From a virus (taxonomy: Duplodnaviria; Heunggongvirae; Uroviricota; Caudoviricetes): a stretch of DNA of 11,505 nucleotides. The stretch is taken from the IMG/VR virus record IMGVR_UViG_3300025713_000004. One strand, 5' to 3'. The notes below the pieces were generated by a model. That model was not told the DNA's origin. It searched no databases and saw only the letters and a program-made list of their open reading frames with translations. Made by a program: the position numbers and the translations under genes. This document shows, in pieces, positions 255 through 11,505 of this stretch. Position 1 is the stretch's first letter; each line of letters starts with the position of its first letter.

Positions 255-277
255 TTCCTAAATATTTTTTGATTTTG

Positions 278-320
278 AATTCCCCATAAGTTTTTTTTTA
301 TGGGGAATTTTTATTTTATC
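278..320 (+). terminator. Intrinsic (Rho-independent) terminator
   Basis: Perfect 12-bp inverted repeat AATTCCCCATAA (278-289) / TTATGGGGAATT (298-309) with an 8-nt loop, followed by a T-rich tract, 23 nt after a stop codon. Confidence 0.85.
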
Positions 321-342: not shown

Positions 343-358
343 GTATTTATTATAAATA
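343..358 (+). promoter_or_regulatory. Putative phage late promoter motif (GTATTTAT followed by TATAAATA)
   Basis: GTATTTAT at 343-350 recurs at 10973-10980 in the same context (after a terminator, before a gene start). TATAAATA at 351-358 matches the T4 late promoter consensus. Both are short AT-rich motifs, so position is the main support. Confidence 0.45.
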
Positions 359-465: not shown

Positions 466-1611
466 ATGGCTTTTTTTAGTCGTCCAAATTTAGATGATGT
501 CCAATTTAAACAGTTAAGTGGTACTACATTAACATTATCAGGTAAAACAATATTTAATAATACTACAGGTTTAATATTAACTGATGATAATGATAATAAA
601 ATACCAATTGTTGTAACTGGTGCTAGTAATAATAAAGTTTTAACTTATTATGATGGTAAAATTGTATTAATGTCTGGTGGTAGTGGTGGTGGTGGTGTAT
701 ATTATAATAGTTCACCAACAACATGCACTGTTGGTGGTTTAAATTGTGGGACAGATATTTATGGTTGTGAAATTAGTAAAATTTTAGAATGTATTGTTGC
801 ACCAGTTTTAATGCCAACATTAACACCAAATTCATACACATTTACTGAAAAATCATCAACTAAGTTATATCAAGAGGTTGGTTCTGTTATTAGTAGTATT
901 TGTGTTTGTTCGATTTATAATAGAGGTTCTGTTACTCCTTCTTATGGTGGTACTTCTTATAGAACTGGAATTCCAAGATGTTATAAATATGATTATTACT
1001 GTCCTAGTTGTAATTGTTACTATAATATTTGTACTTGTGTTACAAACAGTCTTGTTAATACACCAAAATTAAATAATTTTCCAATTTCACATTGTTGTGT
1101 TAATAGAATTAGAGGAACTGTTTATTATTGTGAAGGTGAACCACCACATTATAGTAATGGTTGCGATATTAGTGGATGTACATGTCCTGCTGGTAGTCTT
1201 ACTTCTTGTATTAATAAAATTGGTGTTTATCCATATTTTTGGGGTGTGAGTAACCATACTGGTAGTTTTTCTAGTAATAGTTGTTATCAAAATTGTTTAA
1301 TTAATAATGCTAGTGGTTGTTGTGTTTGTCCGACAAATGGTAATGTGGTTGTTGATAATTATAATTCTTCAGAAAATAGAATTTGGTTAGCAATACCAAA
1401 TTGTGGTGGTTGTCTTAAAACAAAATGGCAGGGTGGTAATAGCCTTGAAAATAAAGGAAATATACCGAGTGAAACAGGATTGTTTGATAATAATTCTGTT
1501 GTTTGTAATGTTTGTATATCATCACCAAATTCATATTGGTCTAACGTTCCATATACTTTTTATATTAGTTCATATCCAACATCAATAAATTATAGTATGA
1601 CTTTTAGTTAA
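466..1611 (+). CDS. ORF1: Cys-rich virion structural (fibre/decoration-like) protein, 381 aa
   Basis: Long ORF with ATG and TAA. The N-terminal Q..x..TLTLSG motif is shared with ORF5 and is followed by a GGSGGGG linker. The domain after it (SP..T.GG...G....EILE..V.P...P...EVG...NRGS..P.Y.G...CP.G...GVYP) is paralogous to the ORF2 C-terminus. 28 Cys, all within aa 87-350. Confidence 0.8.
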   Translation: MAFFSRPNLDDVQFKQLSGTTLTLSGKTIFNNTTGLILTDDNDNKIPIVVTGASNNKVLTYYDGKIVLMSGGSGGGGVYYNSSPTTCTVGGLNCGTDIYGCEISKILECIVAPVLMPTLTPNSYTFTEKSSTKLYQEVGSVISSICVCSIYNRGSVTPSYGGTSYRTGIPRCYKYDYYCPSCNCYYNICTCVTNSLVNTPKLNNFPISHCCVNRIRGTVYYCEGEPPHYSNGCDISGCTCPAGSLTSCINKIGVYPYFWGVSNHTGSFSSNSCYQNCLINNASGCCVCPTNGNVVVDNYNSSENRIWLAIPNCGGCLKTKWQGGNSLENKGNIPSETGLFDNNSVVCNVCISSPNSYWSNVPYTFYISSYPTSINYSMTFS

Positions 1612-1631
1612 TATATAAAAAAATATAAGAA

Positions 1632-4250
1632 ATGGCTATTCAATATAATGAAAATATAAAAATTGCTGCTCCCAATCCATTAGATTGGAGATATTTAAGT
1701 AATAGAACATTAAATGGTAGTCAATTACCATATTCAGGTATTACAGAAGTCAATAATAAAATAATACCAAGTGAAAGATATACTGGTTTAACTGTTAATA
1801 TTAATGGAACAGAATATTGGTATAAAGATGGTATTGGTAATAATGATTTAGTTGAAAAAATAGTAGATGGTACTGGATTATTAAGTGGTTACATTACTGG
1901 TGCGACTAATTATGGATATTATGAAGGATTATCTAATATTCAAACATTGGAAATAGTAATAATTGGTATTTTTTCACATTTAAGTGGTGATTATGATTCA
2001 ACATACCCAAATTTTTATATTGATAATTTAGGTAATTTACAAATTGGTATTCCTAGTGATGGTAATGGTAGAAGGGCTTATTTATTGAAAAATAGTATTT
2101 ATGAAGCATCTTTTGTTTGGAGTGATTATGAGGTTATTGGTTCATATAAAATTGGTTGGAATTTGGTTGATGTTGATGTTTCAAAATATATTGAAAAATC
2201 AGTAAAAACAAGAATAAAAAATTATTACGGTTTACTTAATGAACCATATAATGAAATTACTTGGAATCCTAGTGCTGGTGGTTATAATAATGGTAGTTCT
2301 TTAATTATTTCAAGTGTTCAAGGTAATCTTAATGGTTTGGGTAGTGAAATTAAAATTGGAAATCCAATTTATTCACGTACTAAAGATAATTCTCTATATC
2401 TTAGAACAATAAAAACAACAACACCGAATATAATAAACATTTCACATGATGCTGCTTATATAGATATATCAGGTACAACAATTTGTGGTATTAATATAGG
2501 AAAAGCCAATGAAATATATTCAGGATTGGATGGTAATAATTTAAAATTTAGAACAATTCAAGGTAGTGGAAATACAACAGTAAAAACATCTGGTGATAGA
2601 ATTATTGTTTATAGTTCATCAGATGGTAGTAGTTCAAATTATGTGGAATGTGGTAATAATATTGGTTTATATATAGGGAAAAGTGGAACTCAAAGATTGT
2701 ATTTAGATTATTCTGATGATTATAATTTTGCTGGGTATTATGATTCGTTGTATAATAATTATTATATTAATTCTAATGGTGTTCTTTGTGTTGGTAAAAT
2801 AAATATTGGGGGTGTTGATGTTGGTAGAAGGGGATTTATTCATGAAACTAGTGGTGGTTCTATGAAATATACTTCTTTTGTTTGGAGCAATTACGAATCA
2901 CCATTAGCGAATTGTTATACTATGGGATGGATATTATTGTCTGGACATCTTGATTGTTTTATTGGTTGTAATGTATTAAGTAAATTACAATCATATTATG
3001 AATCATCAATACCATATACTGAAGTTTATTGGTCACCATATTCTTTTTATAATAATGGTTCTGAGTTATCAATAGAGGTTATTTCAGGGTCAACAATGAC
3101 AGGTAATACAATTTGTGTTGGTGGTCCGATTTATTCATATGTTGATAATCAAACAATGTATCTTAGAACTATTAATTCCAAAACCCCAGAAAATCTTAAA
3201 GTTTCTTTTGATGGTGCATTTGTTTATTTATCTGCCATTACTTCAGTTTCTAATGTTTCTACTTGTGGTATTGGCGAAAGTATTGTATATAATTATAATG
3301 GTAAAAATTTAAATTTAAAATCAATTGTTGGTAGTGGTGGAACACATGTTAAAACATGTGATGATTGTTTGATTATTTGTTCTGATTCTGGTGGTGGAAG
3401 TGGTTTTTATGAATTATCATCACCAGCAGCAATCACTCTTGGTGGTATTTGTCAAGGTGATGTTTTAACAGGTAAAACATCAAATGAAATACTTGAAATG
3501 TTATTAGTACCAACACTATATCCAACAATAACAAGTCCTTCTAGTAGTTTTACATTATCAGAATCGGGATTAAAAGAAATTGGATGCTTAATTTCGTGTA
3601 TGTCGGCAACTTCAAACTTTAATCGTGGGTCAATTTTACCAATTTATTGTGGTGGTCCGTCCCATTCTGTTGGTTTTCCAATATCACATAATTTACAAGG
3701 TACTTGTCTTAATACTATAATTTGTAGTGATTTATGTGTAAAAGTTGATATTTGTGATTATGAAGTTCAACAGGGTATTCAATGTTGGTCAGGTTCTATT
3801 AGTTATAATGCACCTAGTAGTCCACCACTTGATAGTCGTGGTAATCCAATGAGTGCTTGCCCATCAGGTACAACATCAATTAAAGCAAGTTGTATTAATG
3901 GTGTATATCCATTGTATGCCACAACATCAAATATTAATGTATTAACAAAACAACCATTAGTATCAATGTCAAGTAATTATGTTTGTATAAATTTAGTTAG
4001 TGAAGTTGGTGGTAAACAAAAATTTGAAATTCCGTGTGCTTGGTTATCAAGCAATGAGTTAGATGGAATTTCAACATTTAATACGACTAATAATTCTTGG
4101 GAATATGAATCGGGTTCTAAACAAGGCGCATTAACATTTTGGACAGAATCTTCTGAAACAGAAACAATTCAAGGTCAAACAGTTGATTATCGTAGATATG
4201 AATATAATGGTTCTGATAGAAGTAGTATATCAATAAGATTAGAATTTTAA
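1632..4250 (+). CDS. ORF2: modular virion structural (fibre/decoration-like) protein, 872 aa
   Basis: N-terminal PLD.RY...RY.G..V.....YW module, an internal ~250-aa tandem duplication, and a C-terminal domain paralogous to ORF1. The G/S/T/N/I-rich composition is typical of phage fibres. Confidence 0.85.
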   Translation: MAIQYNENIKIAAPNPLDWRYLSNRTLNGSQLPYSGITEVNNKIIPSERYTGLTVNINGTEYWYKDGIGNNDLVEKIVDGTGLLSGYITGATNYGYYEGLSNIQTLEIVIIGIFSHLSGDYDSTYPNFYIDNLGNLQIGIPSDGNGRRAYLLKNSIYEASFVWSDYEVIGSYKIGWNLVDVDVSKYIEKSVKTRIKNYYGLLNEPYNEITWNPSAGGYNNGSSLIISSVQGNLNGLGSEIKIGNPIYSRTKDNSLYLRTIKTTTPNIINISHDAAYIDISGTTICGINIGKANEIYSGLDGNNLKFRTIQGSGNTTVKTSGDRIIVYSSSDGSSSNYVECGNNIGLYIGKSGTQRLYLDYSDDYNFAGYYDSLYNNYYINSNGVLCVGKINIGGVDVGRRGFIHETSGGSMKYTSFVWSNYESPLANCYTMGWILLSGHLDCFIGCNVLSKLQSYYESSIPYTEVYWSPYSFYNNGSELSIEVISGSTMTGNTICVGGPIYSYVDNQTMYLRTINSKTPENLKVSFDGAFVYLSAITSVSNVSTCGIGESIVYNYNGKNLNLKSIVGSGGTHVKTCDDCLIICSDSGGGSGFYELSSPAAITLGGICQGDVLTGKTSNEILEMLLVPTLYPTITSPSSSFTLSESGLKEIGCLISCMSATSNFNRGSILPIYCGGPSHSVGFPISHNLQGTCLNTIICSDLCVKVDICDYEVQQGIQCWSGSISYNAPSSPPLDSRGNPMSACPSGTTSIKASCINGVYPLYATTSNINVLTKQPLVSMSSNYVCINLVSEVGGKQKFEIPCAWLSSNELDGISTFNTTNNSWEYESGSKQGALTFWTESSETETIQGQTVDYRRYEYNGSDRSSISIRLEF
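1887..3389 (+). repeat. Ancient intragenic tandem duplication in ORF2 (aa ~86-332 and ~336-586)
   Basis: Colinear conserved motifs in both copies: GRRA/GRRG, SFVWSDY/SFVWSNY, IGW/MGW, PYNEITW/PYTEVYW, YNNGS/YNNGS, PIYS/PIYS, YLRTI/YLRTI, TP/TP, GSG.T.VKT/GSG.T.VKT. Confidence 0.9.
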
Positions 4251-4261
4251 AATAAATAAAA

Positions 4262-6223
4262 ATGGGAAGAAGTTTAGGTACATTTAAATATTCTGCAAAT
4301 TATGAAGTAGCAAAAAAAGCACCTTTAGATGCAAGACAACTTGTAGATAGTTATTCTGATTTATTATTAGAATCTACTTGGTGTGATAGTGATGGTGGTG
4401 TTTGGTTGTATGATGGTGCAATCGTTGTTGTTTCAAATGATATTGATACTTCCAAGAATGGTGTTTATTGGTTATGTGATGCTTCTAATTATACAAGTGA
4501 AGATAGTTGGATTAATGTTGGTTATGATAGTGACTTTATTATTGAAAATGGTTTATCTTTAATTAATGCTGGTACAACAATAAGATTGGGTGGTAATTTA
4601 GTTACTGGTACAACAATTAATGGTTTAGGATTACATGGTTTTCATTTTGATTGTATTGAAAATTTTAGAATAAATTCTTCAAATCAATATGAATCGACAT
4701 TTAATATTGATAATAATGGCATTTGTTTATCACATTCAGGATTATCTCTTTCTTTATCTTGTAATTTTGGGTTAAAATATGATGATTGTTATCATGATGT
4801 GTTTGAAATACATAGTATTCCTGATGTTTCATATGTTACTGGTATAACATCTAACATTTATAGTTGTTTTAATAATTATTATACGAAAACAGAAATTAAT
4901 AATTATTCGGGTAATACTGATGGTAGAATTAGTTTTTTAGAAGATAATATTATTACGGGTGTAACATGTGTTGGAAGTGGTGTTATACCATATGTTGATG
5001 TTCATGAAAAGGAGATTATATTTAATACAATTAAGGGTAGTGGTGGTACTAAAGTTAGTAAAGTAGGTTATGATATTATTATACATTCAACAACTGGAAG
5101 TAGTAGTGGTGGTGATAGTGTTTTTGATTATGATATAGAAGTTAGTATATGTGAAGGAAAAACTTTTGGTAAATATCTAAATGGTGATGTTATACCATCA
5201 AGTGGTAAAACAGCAATAGATGTAATAAAAATGGCATTAAATGAAGAAAAAAAACCAACAGTTACTTTAACTTCAAGTGGTGATGATGTTCGATTTGGTT
5301 TAGTTGATAAAGAAATTAATTTATGTTTTGATTATGTAATTAATACTTTAGATGCTGATGTTGATTGTGTGTGTCTTGAATGGTATGGGGGTGATATTCT
5401 TGGTTGGACTGTATTAACTGAATCTGTTGATTGTAAAACGTTCAAACATTATATTAATGATAGATTTAATGCATGTACAAATTGTTTTAGATATACAGTA
5501 TATGATACTGCTGGTGCTTCAGAAACTGTATCGTATTCAGTAACACCACAACAATATACTGCACCAAATATAAACATATCGTTAAATGGTGATATTACAT
5601 CACCTGAAACACAAAATTCTAGGGAAAGAGGTAATGTTATTAGTTGTCCAAGTGGATATGTTTGTAGCAACAGAGAATTAGTTAATATAGTTGGTTGGTG
5701 TTTACAAAGATGTTATAGTGGTGATTCATGGAAAACAATATCATCGGGTACTAGTTTAAATGAACAATGTATTAATATTCCATCTGTTGAAGATAATACA
5801 ATAAGTAATAACGCTACTTGTATTAGTTATAGAATTTGTTATGAAGATGAATACACAAATGGTTGTGGTGGTAATCAATCGATTGGATTTAAAGATTATT
5901 CGTATTGGGGATTTAATAATACATATCCATTGAATAGCAGTCAAATTCAGACATTAGGTAATAAATGTTTTATGCCTGATGTTTCTTTAAATTGGAATAA
6001 TATTAATACACCCGCAAATAATTACACATATTATGTGTATCCAAGTAATTATAGTGATATAACATCGATAATAAAAAATGGTGTGGAACAAGATTTAGGG
6101 GCATGGAGTGGATTAACAAACGTTTCCGTTACTAATTTACATGGTGTATCGGTAAATTATAAAGTATATAAAACAAACGCAAGACAAGCATATGGTTTAA
6201 GTGATTGCATTAAAATAACATAA
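4262..6223 (+). CDS. ORF3: modular virion structural (fibre/decoration-like) protein, 653 aa
   Basis: N-terminal PLDARQLV...YDG..V.V....NGVYWL...W module. NGL..LGG.L...TTI and GL.Y...Y...S...YVTGITS modules are shared with ORF4/5, and a GSGGT.V linker is shared with ORF2. The C-terminal region is beta-rich and possibly Ig/FN3-like (inference). 25 Cys. Confidence 0.85.
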   Translation: MGRSLGTFKYSANYEVAKKAPLDARQLVDSYSDLLLESTWCDSDGGVWLYDGAIVVVSNDIDTSKNGVYWLCDASNYTSEDSWINVGYDSDFIIENGLSLINAGTTIRLGGNLVTGTTINGLGLHGFHFDCIENFRINSSNQYESTFNIDNNGICLSHSGLSLSLSCNFGLKYDDCYHDVFEIHSIPDVSYVTGITSNIYSCFNNYYTKTEINNYSGNTDGRISFLEDNIITGVTCVGSGVIPYVDVHEKEIIFNTIKGSGGTKVSKVGYDIIIHSTTGSSSGGDSVFDYDIEVSICEGKTFGKYLNGDVIPSSGKTAIDVIKMALNEEKKPTVTLTSSGDDVRFGLVDKEINLCFDYVINTLDADVDCVCLEWYGGDILGWTVLTESVDCKTFKHYINDRFNACTNCFRYTVYDTAGASETVSYSVTPQQYTAPNINISLNGDITSPETQNSRERGNVISCPSGYVCSNRELVNIVGWCLQRCYSGDSWKTISSGTSLNEQCINIPSVEDNTISNNATCISYRICYEDEYTNGCGGNQSIGFKDYSYWGFNNTYPLNSSQIQTLGNKCFMPDVSLNWNNINTPANNYTYYVYPSNYSDITSIIKNGVEQDLGAWSGLTNVSVTNLHGVSVNYKVYKTNARQAYGLSDCIKIT

Positions 6224-6253
6224 AAAATAAATATTAAATTAAATATTAAAAAA

Positions 6254-7288
6254 TTGGCATTAAGAAGAAGCGATATTGTAGAACATAATAATCCTAACTT
6301 AGCAGTTGTTGATAGTGACTTTGTAAAAGGTGGATTTAGAACAAAGGTTAATAATTTAACCGAGTTATATGATTTGTCATTAAAAATCGATGAACCAACA
6401 GCATCTGGTCAAATGAAAGAACATGCAACAATTGTGTATGTTATAAGTGAAAATGATTATTATGTGTTGGTTGATATTGATAACATTGATAATCACGATG
6501 GTTGGAAAAAATTTATTACAAGTGGTAGTGGTGGAACGATTATTGGTCTTACAGGAAGTACAAATGGTTTAACTGATAATAACAATATTGTTAGTTTAGG
6601 TGGGAATTTAATAACAGAAACAACATTAAACATAAATCAATTTAATTTAATATTAACAGGAACAACTGGAAGTGTTTTAACTACAATTAGCAGTGGAAGT
6701 TCGTCTTATGTTTGTACAAATATTAATGTTAATGAAATTATATTAAAAACAAACAATGATTTAAATTCTGCTCAAATTATTATTGATAAAAATACAAATA
6801 AAATAATAAATTGTGTTGAAAATGGTGATATTATATTAAGTACCTGTTCATATAGTGGTCTTAATGGTAAGATTTGTGTTTGTAGTTGTTCTGGTATTAT
6901 ATATGATAGTTGTTATCATGATAATTATACAAATCGTTCTTTAGTTGACAAAGAATATGTTGATAATAAATTAGATGGTATTAATGTTAGATATGCTGAA
7001 CCATTATATCCTTTTTATGCGGAAGAAGATGATGATTTGATTGCTGTTACTGGATATAGTATTAGTAATGAAGCATATGTTTATTTATTAGATAAACCAA
7101 AATTGGGTCAATGTGTTACGATTACAGATATTGAAGGATGTGCATTAAAATATCCAATTATTATTAATGGTAATGGTAATTACATTAGTAGTGATTCAGA
7201 TGATTTGGCATGTATTAATAGTGATTATGGTTCAATAACTTTAAGATATAATGGTATTTTTTGGAGTGTTGTGGCTTTTTATAATTAA
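6254..7288 (+). CDS. ORF4: fibre-like virion protein, 344 aa, TTG start
   Basis: N-terminal VDSDFVKGG...L...VYV....YY.L.....W module, NGL..LGG module, RSLVDKEYVD motif, and a C-terminal domain paralogous to the ORF5 C-terminus. The first ATG (M54) would cut the conserved N-module, which favours the TTG start. Confidence 0.8.
   Translation: MALRRSDIVEHNNPNLAVVDSDFVKGGFRTKVNNLTELYDLSLKIDEPTASGQMKEHATIVYVISENDYYVLVDIDNIDNHDGWKKFITSGSGGTIIGLTGSTNGLTDNNNIVSLGGNLITETTLNINQFNLILTGTTGSVLTTISSGSSSYVCTNINVNEIILKTNNDLNSAQIIIDKNTNKIINCVENGDIILSTCSYSGLNGKICVCSCSGIIYDSCYHDNYTNRSLVDKEYVDNKLDGINVRYAEPLYPFYAEEDDDLIAVTGYSISNEAYVYLLDKPKLGQCVTITDIEGCALKYPIIINGNGNYISSDSDDLACINSDYGSITLRYNGIFWSVVAFYN
6554..6616 (+). 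repeat. 63-nt dispersed repeat, copy in ORF4 (partner at 8837-8899 in ORF5)
   Basis: 54/63 identical nt by manual codon alignment (GSTNGLTDNNNIVSLGGNLIT vs GSTNGLTDNNGIVCLGGQLIT). Confidence 0.85.
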
Positions 7289-7345
7289 AATAATAAAATG
7301 TTAAAATAGTAAAAAAATAATAAATGTTTTAAAAGTAAGAATATT

Positions 7346-10300
7346 ATGGCAGTTGGTACAAAAATTTTAATAAATGATTCTAAAGTTGACCAAAAAGGAA
7401 CTTTAACATTATGTGGATGTAATCAAATTAATAGTACGGGTTCTTTAGTATATTTAACAGACCAAACACAAGATTATAATTGTCTATCCGTACCCCATGT
7501 TGGTTATGTTACAGGTATAACTAGTGGTGTTTTAACTTGTTTAAATAGTTGTTTTTATAATAAAACAGAAATTAATAAATATACAGGAGATACCGATAAT
7601 AGATTAACTGATATTGAAAGTATAACAAATGTTGCAGTAACAGGTGCTTCCAATGGAATAACAAAAATTGATTCACATAATATTGAATTAGGTGGTAGTT
7701 TAACTAAAAACACAACAATTTCGGGTTCTTATGGTTTTGGTGTTAATAGTAATACAATAAAATTTAGTGGTGTAACAAGTGGTGTTGAAATTGGTGGAAG
7801 TGGATTGTATTTAACTGCAAATATTCCTGGAAGTGGTGGATTACTTTGTTTAGGTGGTTCTGGTGAAGTTTGTCAAACATCTTTAGCAGCATTTGGTGGA
7901 ATTACTGGTGGAACAAATGGTATTGTTGATTGTGGAAATCAAAATGTTGGATTGGGTGGTGTTCTTTCTTCTAGTACTACTATTTGTGGTGATGGAAATA
8001 ATTTAAGTTTAGGTTCTGCTGGAAGTAAATTAGGTTTATTAACAATAAATAGTAGTGAAAATATTGGTATTAATAGCGATAAAAATTTACAAATATCAAT
8101 ATCGGGTGGTACTATTACTACTTCAGATGGAATGGGTTTAAGATATTCTTCTGACTATTCAGATACTTTTGTTGATAATTCATTAATTACTAAACGCTAT
8201 GTTGATAATATTGTTTACGGTATTGACCCAAAATCGGCAGTTCTTGTTGCAACAACAGCAAATATTGATGAATTGATTGATATTAAAACTATTGATGGTA
8301 TTAGTTTAACTGGTGGTGATAGAATTTTAGTAAAAGACCAAGATGATAAAACGGAAAATGGTATTTATATTGTTAATGATGGTAATTGGTATCGTGCAAA
8401 CGATTTTGATGGTACTCCAAGTGGCGAAGTTACGCAAGGTGCATTAATACCAGTAATAACAGGAAATACTAATGCAAATACATTGTGGATATTGACATCT
8501 AAAGACCCAATTACTATAGATGTAGATGAATTAATTTTTACTAAATTTTCACAACTAATTGATGTTTCAAGTGGTAATGGTATTGATATATCAACAGTTG
8601 GTGCAGTAAAAACAATTAGTGTTGACTTAGCAGATAATTCGGGTTTGTGTTTTAGTAGTTCAGAATTGACAATAAACAGCAGTATTGCAGGTTCTGGATT
8701 ATGTTGGAAAAACGGTGTTATTAATGTAGATGTACCAACAGGTGGCACTACTGGTGTTCCTGTTAAATTTGATGATTCTTATGATTTAATTGTTGAAACT
8801 TCAGCAATAAATAATGTATTGGGTGGTGTTTTAAGTGGAAGTACAAATGGATTAACTGATAATAATGGTATTGTTTGTTTGGGTGGTCAATTAATAACAT
8901 CAACAGTAATTTGTGGTAATGATGTTTGTGGTTTGACTTATCAAGATACTGCAATAACAAATAAACGTGGTATTCAATATGCTGATGATTATAGTGCTAC
9001 TTTTGTGGCAAGAAGTTTGGTTGATGCTGGGTTTGTAACAGGATTAACATCAACATCAGGAATTCAAACAGCATGTAATGGTTTAACAAAAGAAGGTAAT
9101 GTTGTTGTATTGGGTGGTACATTAACAGGAAATACTACAATTGATATCAATAATGGTAATTTATTGGTTACTGATGGTGCTGGTAATTTTGGTGCTGATA
9201 TTGCAACAACTTATGTTCAGTTAGGTGATATTAATGGTGTTTGTGGACATTTATATGTGGATGATTGTGGTTCGTTTATTTGTATGAGAAATGCTACGGG
9301 TACTACATACGGAGAGTTTTGTTTTGATTCAACAACTATTAATGGTTTTGTAAGTGATAGTATTGATATTGGGTCATTAAATTTAACAAAGAGTTGTTAT
9401 CAAATAGATGTTGCTTGTGGAAGTAATGTTATTAGAGAACAAATGCTTGCATCATTACCTGAGTATATTGTCTATGCTTGTGGAAGTAATAAACAAATGT
9501 TTGCAGGAGCACTCAAAGTTCCCGCTATGGCATGTTGTGGTGCAATCTATGCTACATCAGCAGGTGCAGGAGTTTCATTCGGTAACGGTTCGATTACTTC
9601 AATACATTCAACAGCATTAGGAAACGCAAAAGTAGCAGTAGGAAATGTAATGGTTGATGTGTGTGGTGAAAGCATTAATATAACAACTGATTGTGTTGGT
9701 TCAACACAATATATTGACTTAGACTATCCAACTAATTTAATAACTATTGAATCAACTTGTGTTAATGTTGGATTAGGTAGCACTACAAATATTTTAATTG
9801 ATGGTAATGCAGATAGTATTTTAGTTAATACAACTGGTGTTCAACTATGCTTACAACAATCTGGTGGTAATATCTTTACCGATACTGTTAACAGTAAAGG
9901 TCTTGAATATGCTGAAGATTATAGTATAAACTTTACAGACCGTTCATTGGTTGATAAAGCATATGTTGATGGTGCTGTAGTATCAGGAACATCATTAATT
10001 TATGCATGTAATGGTTTAACAAAAGTTGATAATACAATTGCTTTGGGTGGTACATTAACTGGTGATACTTGGATATGTATACCTTCAGATGCATGTTTTG
10101 CTTTTGGTGATGCAACAACAGTTAATACCAACATCCAAATAATACGTACTTCAGGTAATGAATCGATTAATATGTATACCAATGGCACTACATTCTGGTC
10201 AGATTTATATCTTCATGATGGTAATTCTGCATTACGTTATTATGATTGCAATGCAGTAACAACATCTGAGTTAGTGGTAGAACCAAATCGTGCTAAAATG

Positions 10301-10885
10301 ATTGTTAATGATGGTAATTCAGAAATTGATGTAGATATTAACTATATTCAACTTGGTTATTATGGTACAGGTAATAATGAAATTTATTTAGATTCAGCAG
10401 GTATTTCATTCTTGTCAGATACTGCAATTATTTTGGGTGATGCTTCATATTATAATAGTCAAGTATTCATTTGTGCTCCAATAACATCGGGTTCAACAAG
10501 TGACCAAGTTATTGTTAGAGATTCAAGCACTGGTGAACTTAAAACAGTTGCAGGTAGTTCATTAGGTGATAAGAACAACATCTATGCAATGACTGTTATT
10601 ACAACCAGCACTGATTTAACAACGGAAAGTACCTACGTACAAATTGTAAATTCTCCATCTGCTTCAATCACTGTTACATTACCTGCAACACCAATAGATG
10701 GTCAGGTATTTAGAATTAAAGACGGCGGAAATAATGCAGTTAACTTCCCAATTACTATTGCTCCTAATGGTAATTTAATAGATAATGCAGAAAATAATGC
10801 AACACTTAATACTGATGGTGGTGCTCTTGAACTGGTATATAACAATGAATTAGGTTCATGGTTTGTATTCTCATTTGTTAATTAA
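7346..10885 (+). CDS. ORF5: large tail-fibre-like virion protein, 1179 aa
   Basis: Contains a COG5301-like phage tail-fibre domain (DPKSAVLVATTANI...IDG..L..GDRILVKDQ...ENGIY...W.RA.D), five NG..LGG.L...T.I repeats, three Y..DY...SL...YV/FV motifs, and a C-terminal ITVTLP..P.DG...I.D domain resembling the T4 gp34 N-terminal repeats (recalled from memory). 33 Cys. Confidence 0.88.
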   Translation: MAVGTKILINDSKVDQKGTLTLCGCNQINSTGSLVYLTDQTQDYNCLSVPHVGYVTGITSGVLTCLNSCFYNKTEINKYTGDTDNRLTDIESITNVAVTGASNGITKIDSHNIELGGSLTKNTTISGSYGFGVNSNTIKFSGVTSGVEIGGSGLYLTANIPGSGGLLCLGGSGEVCQTSLAAFGGITGGTNGIVDCGNQNVGLGGVLSSSTTICGDGNNLSLGSAGSKLGLLTINSSENIGINSDKNLQISISGGTITTSDGMGLRYSSDYSDTFVDNSLITKRYVDNIVYGIDPKSAVLVATTANIDELIDIKTIDGISLTGGDRILVKDQDDKTENGIYIVNDGNWYRANDFDGTPSGEVTQGALIPVITGNTNANTLWILTSKDPITIDVDELIFTKFSQLIDVSSGNGIDISTVGAVKTISVDLADNSGLCFSSSELTINSSIAGSGLCWKNGVINVDVPTGGTTGVPVKFDDSYDLIVETSAINNVLGGVLSGSTNGLTDNNGIVCLGGQLITSTVICGNDVCGLTYQDTAITNKRGIQYADDYSATFVARSLVDAGFVTGLTSTSGIQTACNGLTKEGNVVVLGGTLTGNTTIDINNGNLLVTDGAGNFGADIATTYVQLGDINGVCGHLYVDDCGSFICMRNATGTTYGEFCFDSTTINGFVSDSIDIGSLNLTKSCYQIDVACGSNVIREQMLASLPEYIVYACGSNKQMFAGALKVPAMACCGAIYATSAGAGVSFGNGSITSIHSTALGNAKVAVGNVMVDVCGESINITTDCVGSTQYIDLDYPTNLITIESTCVNVGLGSTTNILIDGNADSILVNTTGVQLCLQQSGGNIFTDTVNSKGLEYAEDYSINFTDRSLVDKAYVDGAVVSGTSLIYACNGLTKVDNTIALGGTLTGDTWICIPSDACFAFGDATTVNTNIQIIRTSGNESINMYTNGTTFWSDLYLHDGNSALRYYDCNAVTTSELVVEPNRAKMIVNDGNSEIDVDINYIQLGYYGTGNNEIYLDSAGISFLSDTAIILGDASYYNSQVFICAPITSGSTSDQVIVRDSSTGELKTVAGSSLGDKNNIYAMTVITTSTDLTTESTYVQIVNSPSASITVTLPATPIDGQVFRIKDGGNNAVNFPITIAPNGNLIDNAENNATLNTDGGALELVYNNELGSWFVFSFVN
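8225..8551 (+). other. COG5301-like phage tail-fibre domain within ORF5 (aa ~294-402)
   Basis: Matches the widespread phage motif K.SV.VATTANI...IDGV.L..GDRVLVKDQ...ENGIY......W.RA.D.......G....V..G..NA...W.L....PI. This domain contains no Cys. Family name assigned from memory, not from a search. Confidence 0.7.
8837..8899 (+). repeat. 63-nt dispersed repeat, copy in ORF5 (partner at 6554-6616 in ORF4)
   Basis: 54/63 identical nt. Includes an AGT(Ser)/TGT(Cys) difference between the copies. Confidence 0.85.
9071..9136 (+). repeat. 66-nt direct repeat, copy 1 in ORF5 (partner at 10004-10069)
   Basis: 54/66 identical nt, with the first 22 nt GCATGTAATGGTTTAACAAAAG identical. Spacing is 933 nt = 311 codons, in frame. 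Confidence 0.85.
10004..10069 (+). repeat. 66-nt direct repeat, copy 2 in ORF5 (partner at 9071-9136)
   Basis: ACNGLTKVDNTIALGGTLTGDT vs ACNGLTKEGNVVVLGGTLTGNT; 54/66 nt identical. Confidence 0.85.
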
Positions 10886-10972: not shown

Positions 10973-10981
10973 GTATTTATA
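10973..10981 (+). promoter_or_regulatory. Putative late promoter motif GTATTTATA upstream of the glycosyltransferase
   Basis: Same GTATTTAT core and T-rich upstream flank as 343-350. It lies ~30 nt after a terminator and ~45 nt before the ATG. Confidence 0.4.
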
Positions 10982-11024: not shown

Positions 11025-11505
11025 ATGAAGAATGATGGTTCAATTAAACCAGATGATAAATTTGTTATATTTCATACAGAGGGGGGGCATGGTAAGCAGG
11101 TTTGCGCAACAGCAGTATGTCGTGCAATAAAAAAAGCATATCCTGATTATAAATTAATTGTTGTAACAGCATGGGACGGTCCGTTCTTTTACAATCCTGA
11201 TGTATGGAGATTCTATACATTTGGACAAATGCAATACTTTTATGATGATTATATCAAAGAGGATACAAAGATATTCAGACACGAAGTTTATCATAGTGAA
11301 GACCATATAATGCAAAGAAAGCATTTGACACAATCATGGTGTGATATGTATAATATTCCTTGGGATGGTTATAAACCAAAAATATATATTAATCCTCGTG
11401 AATTAGAAATTGCAAAAGATAAAATAAAACCAGATAATAGACCGATAATGTTATTGCAAACACATGGTGGTTCACCAAATTCACAATATAGTAAAAAATC
11501 TTGGT
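11025..11505 (+). CDS. Glycosyltransferase, GT9 (ADP-heptose:LPS heptosyltransferase-like, GT-B fold), 3'-truncated; absent from the ORF track
   Basis: ATG at 11025, open to the window end (160 codons): MKNDGSIKPDDKFVIFHTEGGHGKQVCATAVCRAIKKAYPDYKLIVVTAWDGPFFYNPDV...KPKIYINPRE...RPIMLLQTHGGSPNSQYSKKSW. The GG.G....AT.V.RAIKKAYPD.KLIVVT start and the P...L.THGG......K.W second-domain start follow the RfaF/WaaF-type pattern. Confidence 0.75.
   Translation, partial: MKNDGSIKPDDKFVIFHTEGGHGKQVCATAVCRAIKKAYPDYKLIVVTAWDGPFFYNPDVWRFYTFGQMQYFYDDYIKEDTKIFRHEVYHSEDHIMQRKHLTQSWCDMYNIPWDGYKPKIYINPRELEIAKDKIKPDNRPIMLLQTHGGSPNSQYSKKSW

Follow-up and report, generated by a model that had tools for sequence, protein, structure and literature searches.

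The window, a stretch of 11,505 nucleotides of viral DNA, carries five consecutive ORFs whose products are rich in cysteine. Here we show that this enrichment is restricted to the fibre proteins of the phage, was gained specifically in its lineage, falls on polar and probably exposed positions, and turns over fast. The reading which best explains these observations, and to which we assign a probability of about one half, is that the distal, fast-evolving fibre modules of this lineage have lost the usual strong avoidance of Cys; we infer relaxed purifying selection as the cause. Extracellular virus parts that are put together in the cytoplasm usually avoid Cys, and fibre surfaces laden with it are unusual for virus particles.

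A probable tail-fibre operon of a T4-like jumbo phage

The five ORFs (Table 1) most likely form the operon for tail fibres or adhesins in a T4-like jumbo phage that has not been cultivated, the lineage of which is represented by contigs of 220-240 kb with a GC content of about 29%. Comparison of ORF5 with PHROGs revealed matches to phrog_11518, annotated 'tail fiber protein' (E 1.6e-23), and also to phrog_972, the tail-fibre and head-decoration matches lying at aa 276-507 and 1093-1176. ORF1 to ORF4 did not match any Pfam or PHROG profile, and searching BFVD with the model of ORF1 retrieved predicted tail and tail-fibre proteins with E down to 7e-14. The gene order, syntenic with that of the fibre operon in T4, also speaks for tail fibres. 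As in T4 genes 34-38, five consecutive late genes encode large Ser/Gly/Thr/Asn-rich fibre proteins, the distal one being strain-variable, and the operon lies 3' of replication genes (rnh-like 5'-3' exonuclease, DnaB-type helicase), which recalls the order of rnh and genes 34-38. No sequence homology of the five ORFs to T4 gp34-38 was detectable. The late-promoter-like word GTATTTAT was not enriched when taken alone (4 found against 2.5 expected).

Table 1. Features of the window, with positions counted from its first letter.
Feature	Position	Strand	Remarks
Terminator-like hairpin, 14 pairs and T run	277..310	+	Ends upstream ARPP-1-like gene, before the operon
GTATTTAT word, late-promoter-like	343..350	+	116 nt 5' of ORF1
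ORF1, 381 aa	466..1611	+	28 Cys (7.35%); first 86 aa without Cys
ORF2, 872 aa	1632..4250	+	24 Cys (2.75%); aa 1-284 Cys-free
ORF3, 653 aa	4262..6223	+	25 Cys (3.83%)
ORF3 C-domain, aa 276-653	5087..6220	+	17 Cys; helix, then tandem FN3/Ig-like sandwiches
ORF4, 344 aa	6254..7288	+	10 Cys (2.9%); TTG start; aa 1-150 Cys-free
69-nt module in ORF4	6554..6622	+	84% DNA identity to 8837-8905 in ORF5
ORF5, 1179 aa	7346..10885	+	33 Cys (2.8%); strain-variable distal fibre
Cys-poor module in ORF5, aa 276-460	8171..8725	+	Common to many unrelated phages; internal control
GTATTTAT word, second copy	10973-10980		5' of the gene downstream of the operon
Downstream ORF, cut off by window end	11025..11504	+	1.9% Cys; outside the Cys-rich set

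Residues 87-381 of ORF1 gave a confident model of an all-beta, two-domain tip (Ig/FN3-like sandwich) resembling predicted tail proteins of uncultured phages, and the C-terminal tip of ORF2 is a paralogue of this tip. ORF2 also contains an internal duplication (35% identity, E 5e-37), of which copy 1 (within aa 61-335) has 1 Cys as against 10 in copy 2 (within aa 336-600). The counterparts of ORF5 in other strains are 1109-1391 aa long and carry 44-49 Cys, while the 50-aa blocks covering aa 251-400 of ORF5 itself have none. In the 69-nt module shared by ORF4 and ORF5, a single AGT to TGT change converts IVSLGG into IVCLGG. Such diverged protein modules (40-69 nt, 64-84% identity) are the sole direct repeats, and DGR-diversified tips were rejected on this ground. 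Inspection of the five N-termini revealed no hydrophobic h-region of an export signal in any of them; a Sec-exported, disulfide-rich fibre was rejected accordingly.

Cysteine enrichment, its position and its turnover

The Cys counts originally given for the five ORFs were all exact and add up to 120/3429 residues (3.5%), and the peptide motifs quoted with them were present where indicated in 21 cases out of 21. The 120 codons comprise 113 TGT and 7 TGC. Seven upstream replication genes of the same phage encode 23 Cys in 2813 residues (0.8%; Fisher p = 1.7e-13 versus the fibre ORFs), and the five fibre proteins of T4, gp34-38, contain 5 in 3091 (0.16%; p = 1e-27); the fibre Cys load here is about twenty times that of T4 fibres. 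The Cys content expected from composition is about 3-3.5%, alike for the fibre ORFs, the seven neighbours and T4 gp34-38. The fibre cluster of a relative, G001 (178 kb), has 3.11% Cys as compared to 0.93% for the rest, and the non-fibre proteins of at least 500 aa in G001 have 0.51% (for example, 4 Cys in 2021 aa and 4 in 1489 aa). Thus, Cys is low in the non-fibre genes compared, and the enrichment is not genome-wide.

Alignment with homologues revealed that the gain of Cys is lineage-specific. The ORF3 C-domain has 17 Cys against a median of 0 in 134 family representatives, and its closest homologues (48-53% identical), including that of the syntenic sister phage L024 (GC 32%), have 0-1. When the window was compared with L024, 72 Cys were found only in the window and 16 only in the sister (p = 1e-9). 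The ORF1 protein is indexed in 102 blocks of a public assembly collection.

The replacement of polar residues by Cys, as originally proposed, was supported by exchange, column-class and strand analyses. The best exchange partners of Cys are K, R, D, S, T and N, a pattern that differs from BLOSUM62. Within the ORF1 family, Cys accounts for 1.2% of residues at conserved columns, 7.2% at variable columns and 0.7% in the N-terminal attachment part. The family of the ORF3 C-domain has N, T, S or Q at the 17 Cys sites. Of these sites, 13 fall within predicted strands and coincide with polar columns of the homologues. Placement of Cys between two hydrophobic residues, which had been described as a frequent pattern, was real but modest over the five ORFs (19% of Cys against 11-15% for S/T/V/A/G/N) and very clear in the ORF3 C-domain, where both columns next to the clearest Cys (aa 355, 408, 480 and 526) are hydrophobic in at least 96% of homologues. 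Judged from column patterns and predicted strands, the fibre Cys probably face outward and are exposed.

The model of the ORF3 C-domain (pLDDT 94.4) matched FN3 tandems of titin and NCAM (Foldseek E 1e-5 to 1e-4), and aa 120-256 of ORF1 matched RbmA (VIA Z 8.5), as well as other sandwiches. The modelled domains thus share a tandem beta-sandwich architecture with titin FnIII, NCAM FN3, RbmA and an ice-binding adhesin, a likeness at the level of fold only (8-15% identity). In FN3/Ig-like decoration and adhesin domains the disulfide, where present, is buried, whereas the Cys described here would face outward.

We checked conservation in an alignment of 97 sequences of the ORF1 family, in which Cys content varies from 0 to 7.7% (median 4.1%). 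Cys occurs in at least 8 sequences at 59 columns, a single Cys column of the window is more than 52% conserved, and the Cys columns tested underwent 3-24 state changes on the tree. Retention between sister sequences was 0.61 for Cys, 0.62 for Ser, 0.65 for Thr and 0.91 for Trp. Where two sequences shared 75% identity or more, S, G, Y and F, which a single step separates from Cys, accounted for 45% of the Cys mismatches, as compared to 29% expected, and of the near-identical phages L009 and L010 one carries a Cys-rich and the other a Cys-poor tip allele. Neither a spacing motif nor any periodicity of Cys was found in the five ORFs; CxxC was not enriched (6 observed, 4.7 expected), and CxC occurred 9 times against 4.7 expected (p 0.04 by global and 0.14 by local shuffle). 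The single column above 52%, the Ser-like retention and the lack of a spacing motif bear out the original prediction that these are not conserved disulfides or zinc fingers. A zinc-finger or metal Cys cluster was rejected, there being no excess of CxxC, no conservation of positions and little His (0.4-1.4% in the fibre proteins). A putative class of fibre modules with Cys repeats matured by a radical-SAM enzyme (CXXX/ranthipeptide-like) was also rejected, since Cys shows no periodicity and no radical-SAM gene was found in the 21 kb around the fibre cluster; the only one found in G001 lies more than 100 kb from its fibre cluster and scores far under every NCBIfam maturase cut-off.

A proposed loss of cysteine avoidance and the alternatives

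At variable polar columns the observed/expected ratio of Cys was 1.93, lower than that of Ser and Thr and close to that of Asn (2.04), Gly (2.16), Asp (2.10), Ala (2.03) and Gln (1.90), and Cys made up 7.8% of the polar set against 7.0% expected. The 'selected display of thiols' put forward in the original prediction was therefore not borne out, as Cys is only as frequent as other polar residues that carry no penalty. Loss of the penalty on Cys suffices, and positive selection for thiols is not needed, because Cys equals other polar residues in this ratio, because its recent changes favour the single-nucleotide neighbours S, G and Y, and because Cys-rich and Cys-poor tip alleles occur in near-identical phages. 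The modules affected would be the tandem FN3/Ig-like beta-sandwiches and the repeat modules, in which Cys would simply join the small polar residues of the surface and exchange with Ser, Thr and Asn. Most of it would arise through single-base changes in AGT, GGT and TAT, codons which are very abundant, and it would be lost as fast as Ser or Thr. Given this Ser/Thr-like exchange and turnover, most of the fibre Cys would belong neither to fixed disulfides nor to metal sites or repeats modified by an enzyme. The outcome would be a thiol-studded fibre surface, likely tolerated either as the virions live in reducing conditions or as stray oxidation of the domains is harmless, and any function of the thiols would be secondary. 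The occurrence of both tip alleles in near-identical backgrounds means that a simple relaxation across the habitat does not account for everything.

It is possible, though unlikely, that the exposed Cys oxidise after lysis to variable, non-conserved bonds within or between chains, which would make the fibres tougher or alter the shape of the tip surfaces and would be selected, but at shifting positions. Structural diversity would then arise much as it does from the variable Cys patterns of bovine ultralong antibody loops. Enrichment of Cys in strands, where cross-strand neighbours exist, would suit such bonds, as would the 6, 8 and 2 Cys in the three predicted sandwiches of the ORF3 C-domain. 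Moreover, several Cys columns of the ORF1 family co-occur, and Cys counts are even in 61 of its members and odd in 36 (p = 0.014, kinship ignored), an excess that hints at some pairing and speaks against relaxation. However, differences between sister pairs were even in 20 cases and odd in 15, showing no pairing, and a phylogenetically independent pair test, itself underpowered, gave no significant coupling. Cys is also lost as readily as Ser, which is unexpected if each loss strands a partner. In other fibre proteins of the lineage even and odd counts are about equal, and odd counts prevail when the 17 in the window are pooled with the ORF3-domain homologues that have 1% Cys or more (3-13 each).

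Precedents for such bonds exist in the disulfide-held virions of Milano and 7-7-1 (PMC10491603, PMC12796354) and in the fibres of Pam3 (PMC9942802). Milano and 7-7-1 are Agrobacterium myophages with disulfide-networked virions, whose structural proteins contain 2.4-2.6% Cys as compared to 0.9% in the T4 proteome (PMC10491603, PMC12796354). There, as here, Cys-rich structural proteins are a lineage-specific trait. Milano has its Cys in capsid, neck, collar and sheath, at positions conserved in related phages, and nearly all of them are engaged in mapped disulfides (PMC10491603, PMC12796354). In contrast to both phages, capsid and tail body have little Cys here (0.2-0.8%), the enrichment being confined to the fibres (3.5%, up to 7.4%); unlike in Milano, positions are unconserved and pairing is not evident, parity and co-occurrence signals being weak and mixed. 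In cyanophage Pam3, the tail fibres are disulfide-linked to the baseplate wedge, with one defined Cys near the fibre N-terminus and Cys-rich wedge loops, and redox dependence has been proposed (PMC9942802). Tail-fibre Cys are common to Pam3, where their role lies outside the cell, and our phage, but ORF1, ORF2 and ORF4 have no Cys in their N-terminal attachment parts, and in our phage Cys is scattered over the distal modules.

We consider it quite unlikely that free exposed thiols are selected as such for adhesion, disulfide exchange with the host, binding of metal or mineral, or modification (e.g. S-glycosylation). The exposed positions are consistent with such functions. The Cys content of ORF1, and of some homologues (7-7.7%), is about 2-fold higher than expected from composition, which also counts against plain relaxation. 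The gain relative to sister and family is strongly directional and includes T-to-C and N-to-C replacements that take two base changes, and a phage tRNA that reads UGU lies behind a late-promoter-like word; this tRNA could be an adaptive investment and would then count against plain relaxation too. On the other hand, Cys positions are not conserved as a site for binding or modification would require, and the frequency of Cys is equal to, not above, that of other favoured polar residues. A tip allele poor in Cys is functional in the same phage background, and relatives with equally Cys-rich fibres have no such tRNA. The suggested link to a neighbouring GT9 glycosyltransferase received no HMM support: the gene downstream of the operon belonged to no Pfam, NCBIfam or PHROG family, and neither it nor its full-length counterparts in relatives carried a glycosyltransferase signature in these collections.

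A purely mutational or compositional artefact, whereby a T- and G-rich coding strand and genes rich in AGT, GGT and TAT raise Cys, is very improbable. The compositional expectation for the fibre genes (3.4-3.8%) fits the observed 3.5%, and codons one step away from those of Cys are over-represented among its recent changes. Yet T4 fibre genes, with similar Ser/Gly/Thr/Asn and an expectation of 2.7-3.5%, have 0.16% Cys, and the closest ORF3-domain homologues stay at 0-1 Cys. Among relatives, fibre Cys load does not follow GC, and other residues are far off expectation (F 0.38, K 0.53 and R 0.30 of expected). Taken together, the comparisons with T4 and with the family largely refute this artefact.

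We find it scarcely credible that the encoded Cys is not Cys, UGU in late fibre genes being decoded wholly or partly as another residue by a tRNA with an ACA anticodon, which would amount to a phage sense-codon reassignment limited to late genes. U73 and G34 are major CysRS identity elements. The tRNA, encoded upstream of the window, has the loop U-C-ACA-A-U, A34, C33, discriminator A73 and a G1.A72 mismatch; it is thus without these elements and differs from canonical bacterial tRNA-Cys (GCA anticodon, U73 discriminator). Its neighbours likewise have bodies mismatched to their anticodons, and the locus is tRNA-like and evolutionarily labile, with UCA or CAA in the anticodon loop in relatives. 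Profile codon inference on the Cys-free ORF3-domain family, which recovered the standard residue for 14 control codons, assigned TGT best to Ser (0.28) with Cys at -4.7, and the strongly conserved C87 of ORF1 uses TGC, not TGT. However, the TGT columns fit no single residue, their consensus being N, N, T, S, S and so on by site, and the short variable arm of the tRNA rules out SerRS, of which it is therefore not a substrate. TGT also occupies core columns of ORF1 (aa 191, 240 and 286), at which the family alternates C with V, I and L, and encodes 22 of the 23 Cys of the replication genes, in hydrophobic contexts. G001, in whose 178 kb there is no ACA tRNA, has Cys-rich fibres and uses TGT in thioredoxin CxxC and radical-SAM CxxxCxxC motifs.

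Cysteine-studded fibres in phage biology

The lineage described here is a widespread one of giant phages, and it departs from Cys avoidance only on its host-recognition fibres, at probably exposed and fast-changing sites. For annotation, high Cys in these proteins is no sign of domains that bind metal or form knots. The same fold occurs in Cys-free and in Cys-loaded form, namely in the two ORF2 repeats, in the ORF3 domain and its wider family, and in the L009 and L010 tips; the question of what the Cys do is therefore directly testable. Should the thiols oxidise, the fibres would serve as a natural experiment on how FN3-like domains are stapled by disulfides at positions that are not conserved. 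Should they be free, the fibres would present the most thiol-rich phage surfaces that we found described, and may hint at a redox-defined niche or at thiol chemistry during adsorption.

The fibre operon and its surroundings

The five Cys-rich genes are consecutive, with intergenic gaps of 11-57 nt. A 5'-3' exonuclease, a DnaB-type helicase and an ARPP-1-like gene are their upstream neighbours, and the gene order around the operon is reminiscent of rnh-gene 34-38 of T4. ORF5 matched PHROG tail-fibre families; no Pfam or PHROG family was matched by ORF1-4. Across six samples of the same phage, ORF1-4 were 99.7-100% identical. ORF5 was the only strain-variable fibre gene, as compared with the 21-kb loci L001, L002, L004 and L005: in other strains it encodes 1109-1391 aa with 44-49 Cys, at 79% identity over 892 aligned residues. 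The AlphaFold model of ORF1 (pLDDT 86.7; mostly >90 over aa 80-381) predicts an all-beta tip of two domains. This tip resembles predicted tail proteins in BFVD from uncultured, crAss-like and Tenacibaculum phages (E down to 7e-14); Foldseek against PDB returned nothing at E <=0.001, and VIA gave generic sandwiches only. The ORF3 C-domain (aa 276-653; pLDDT 94.4) is predicted to form a helix followed by tandem FN3/Ig-like sandwiches, and no solved relatives of it were found by sequence search. On the grounds of gene order, the ORF5 PHROG match, the structural models and the strain-variable ORF5, ORF1-5 are very probably the fibre/adhesin operon of the phage.

Features of the fibre operon (window coordinates)
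Feature	Position	Strand	Description
terminator-like hairpin	277-310		ahead of ORF1-ORF5
GTATTTAT word	from 343		ahead of ORF1-ORF5
ORF1	466-1611	+	fibre operon gene 1/5
ORF2	1632-4250	+	fibre operon gene 2/5
ORF3	4262-6223	+	fibre operon gene 3/5
ORF4	6254-7288	+	fibre operon gene 4/5
ORF5	7346-10885	+	fibre operon gene 5/5

The ORF1 protein was found in 102 indexed blocks of public assemblies, on contigs of up to 240 kb, one copy being assigned to an 'archaeon' MAG by its label. No cultured phage was close, and a scan of genome contigs with the ORF1 alignment gave 0 relatives. The downstream ORF (window 11025-11504) had no match in Pfam, NCBIfam or PHROG, and neither had its counterparts of about 305 aa in L010, a relative, and L024, a syntenic sister phage; its length is 159 aa in strain L003 and 307 aa in other strains. 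A GT9 glycosyltransferase adjoining the operon was rejected, being without HMM support, and a 127-aa antisense ORF within ORF5 (window 8365-8748, minus strand) is most likely spurious. Homing-endonuclease genes lie in or beside the fibre cluster at L010:13784-14488 (GIY-YIG and NUMOD1) and L024:18328-19257 (NUMOD1 and an I-HmuI-like domain). The stretch from the DnaB-like gene to a 548-aa gene varies between strains, with an MT-A70 methyltransferase at L002:5887-6453 and several small ORFs plus an acetyltransferase at L005:5123-7323.

Cysteine content within and beyond the operon

Recounting reproduced exactly the Cys numbers of the original prediction, 28/381, 24/872, 25/653, 10/344 and 33/1179 for ORF1 to ORF5, which total 120/3429 (3.5%) and are encoded by 113 TGT and 7 TGC codons. 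All the motifs it quoted were found in the sequence, and the internal duplication of ORF2 is real (35% identity, E 5e-37), its copies carrying 1 and 10 Cys. The background for the rest of the genome was taken from the 21-kb loci of the same phage and from a 178-kb relative, G001. For comparison, 23 Cys are found in the 2813 residues encoded by seven neighbouring genes of this phage (0.8%; Fisher p 1.7e-13 against the fibre ORFs). Similarly, G001 (178.5 kb) has 3.11% Cys in its fibre cluster as compared to 0.93% elsewhere, and 0.51% in its 16 non-fibre proteins of at least 500 aa. Among the fibre clusters of the other relatives (L007-L011), some proteins have 3-7% Cys and others 0.6-2%. The Cys excess was thus confirmed as real and specific, and is stronger than had been claimed.

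An exhaustive profile search with ORF3 yielded 1160 relatives of its C-domain. This domain carries 17 Cys in the window as against a median of 0 in 134 representatives, 118 of which have <0.5% Cys; its nearest relatives (48-53% identity) have 0-1. Where the window has Cys at aa 408 and 355, 106 and 84 of the 134 representatives have Asn; aa 468 is Thr in 83 and aa 520 is Ser in 74, and residues at the remaining Cys positions include Gln and Lys. The fibres of the sister phage L024, which share 53% identity over 2756 aligned residues, contain 1.4% Cys: 24 Cys are shared, 72 are found in the window only and 16 in the sister only (p 1e-9), window Cys positions being mostly T, S, A or G in the sister. 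The ORF5 module at aa 276-460, common to many unrelated phages, is Cys-poor, with 0 Cys in aa 251-400.

Placement and turnover of the cysteines

Among 97 ORF1 homologues, Cys content ranged from 0 to 7.7% (median 4.1%). Cys occurred in at least 8 sequences at 59 columns, and C87 was the sole strongly conserved window Cys. The tested columns changed state 3-24 times on the tree. Retention between sister sequences was 0.61 for Cys, close to Ser (0.62) and Thr (0.65), as compared to 0.91 for Trp. No CxxC-type spacing signal was detected in the fibre ORFs, and no signal peptide was visible in them. The earlier proposal that these Cys are not conserved structural disulfides or zinc fingers was therefore borne out by their lack of conservation, their Ser/Thr-like turnover and the missing spacing signal. 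No DGR-type template/variable repeat pair was found, nor any radical-SAM gene near the fibre operon. More than 100 kb from its fibre cluster, G001 (also L012) encodes a radical-SAM protein of 274 aa, 19 of them Cys (4952-5776, minus strand), whose best matches, all weak and far below family cut-offs, are the peptide maturases YydG and AlbA; the gene adjoins a peptide deformylase fused to a SEC-C motif.

Across the ORF1 family, the Cys share is 7.2% in variable columns, 1.2% in conserved ones and 0.7% in the N-terminal attachment part. Its preferred exchange partners are K, R, D, S, T and N, the opposite of BLOSUM62. Exposure was judged by strand assignment and column chemistry: 13 of the 17 Cys of the ORF3 C-domain lie in predicted strands, at columns polar in homologues, and at the clearest of these positions (aa 355, 408, 480 and 526) at least 96% of homologues have hydrophobic residues in the two flanking columns. 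From this pattern, rather than from computed accessibility, we infer that they occupy the outward face of the sandwich.

At variable polar columns Cys was the sixth commonest residue (6.9%). At 1.93 times its expectation from base composition, it resembled Asn (2.04), Gly (2.16), Asp (2.10), Ala (2.03) and Gln (1.90); Ser (2.76) and Thr (4.43) exceeded it, and Lys, Glu and Arg lay far lower (0.3-0.44). Of the polar set, Cys accounted for 7.8%, as compared to 7.0% expected. Where sequences of at least 75% identity differed at a Cys, its single-step neighbours (Ser, Gly and Tyr) were over-represented, and an AGT to TGT change was directly seen in one module pair. Two nearly identical phages carry a fibre protein (L009:5734-7572 and L010:3494-5326) of which the first 280 aa are 100% identical and the C-terminal tips are alternative, with about 21 Cys in one whole protein and 5 in the other; this looks like cassette exchange. 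The best reading, to which we give a probability of about one half, is that avoidance of Cys has been lost on the fibre surfaces.

Alternative readings and the ACA tRNA

Variable disulfide stapling is the leading alternative, though an unlikely one. ORF1-family proteins have even Cys counts more often than odd (61 against 36; p 0.014, uncorrected), which hints at some pairing, but Cys-count changes between sister sequences were unpaired (20 even, 15 odd), and an underpowered test of Cys-column coupling on the tree gave no significant pair. A search of G001 for Erv1/Alr proteins of oxidative folding gave no match; the control genomes gave none either, so that this negative carries no information. 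Thioredoxin is present in G001. No ribonucleotide reductase class, sought as an oxygen clue, was found in this 54%-complete record.

Functional thiols are somewhat less probable still. ORF1 has twice the Cys expected from composition, and many Thr/Asn to Cys replacements require two base changes, both of which favour selection for thiols. Of the thiol display originally proposed, the unconserved, probably exposed polar positions stood; its 'selected' character is unneeded, the Cys ratio being like that of Asn, Gly and Asp. A compositional artefact is improbable: the 3091 residues of T4 gp34-38 include 5 Cys (0.16%) at a base-composition expectation of 2.7-3.5%, the same as here, and composition alone is therefore insufficient for the excess.

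Six of six strains (L001-L006) have a tRNA of 73 nt whose anticodon, ACA, reads UGU; it is located at L001:6386-6458, some 3.1 kb upstream of the first base of the window, and scores 48.5 bits with the Rfam tRNA model. Ahead of it stands a sequence that matches the late-promoter word at 9/10 positions, and CGTATTTATA lies about 126 nt upstream of it. With C33, A34, discriminator A73 and G1.A72 mismatched, this tRNA is, by established tRNA identity rules, without the classical CysRS identity elements. No look-alike was found across the phage collection. The syntenic element is CAA in L024 and UCA (opal-suppressor-like) in G001 and the further relatives G003 and G004. Thus, the ACA anticodon is not required for Cys-rich fibres, and the tRNA-supply argument is weakened because relatives with such fibres have the UCA/CAA-type element instead. 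An 87-nt tRNA(CAU) lies at L001:6492-6578; its body is of type II, the variable arm being long, and U1.U72 is mismatched. It is followed at 6600-6860 by further tRNA-like T-arms uncalled by ARAGORN (one of 25.7 bits at 6674-6730), some of which appear, by eye, split or permuted.

Recoding of UGU away from Cys is the least credible reading: profile-based codon inference called TGT 'Ser-like', but TGT columns fit no single residue, some TGT stand at core columns alternating C with V, I and L, ordinary Cys in early genes are encoded by TGT, and the thioredoxin and radical-SAM motifs of G001 use it.

The nearest precedents are the phages Milano, 7-7-1 and Pam3. Structural proteins of Milano and 7-7-1 contain 2.4-2.6% Cys, conserved and nearly all disulfide-bonded (PMC10491603, PMC12796354), and Pam3 has defined disulfides from fibre to wedge (PMC9942802). 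In contrast, the Cys described here are fibre-restricted and more extreme, their positions are unconserved and pairing is not evident; no account of a pattern like this one turned up in the literature searched. To return to lost avoidance, the polar-column ratios, the single-step mismatches and the coexisting tip alleles together say that the usual Cys penalty is gone and that Cys now belongs to the preferred surface alphabet of these fibres, for which selection for thiols is unneeded, though compatible.
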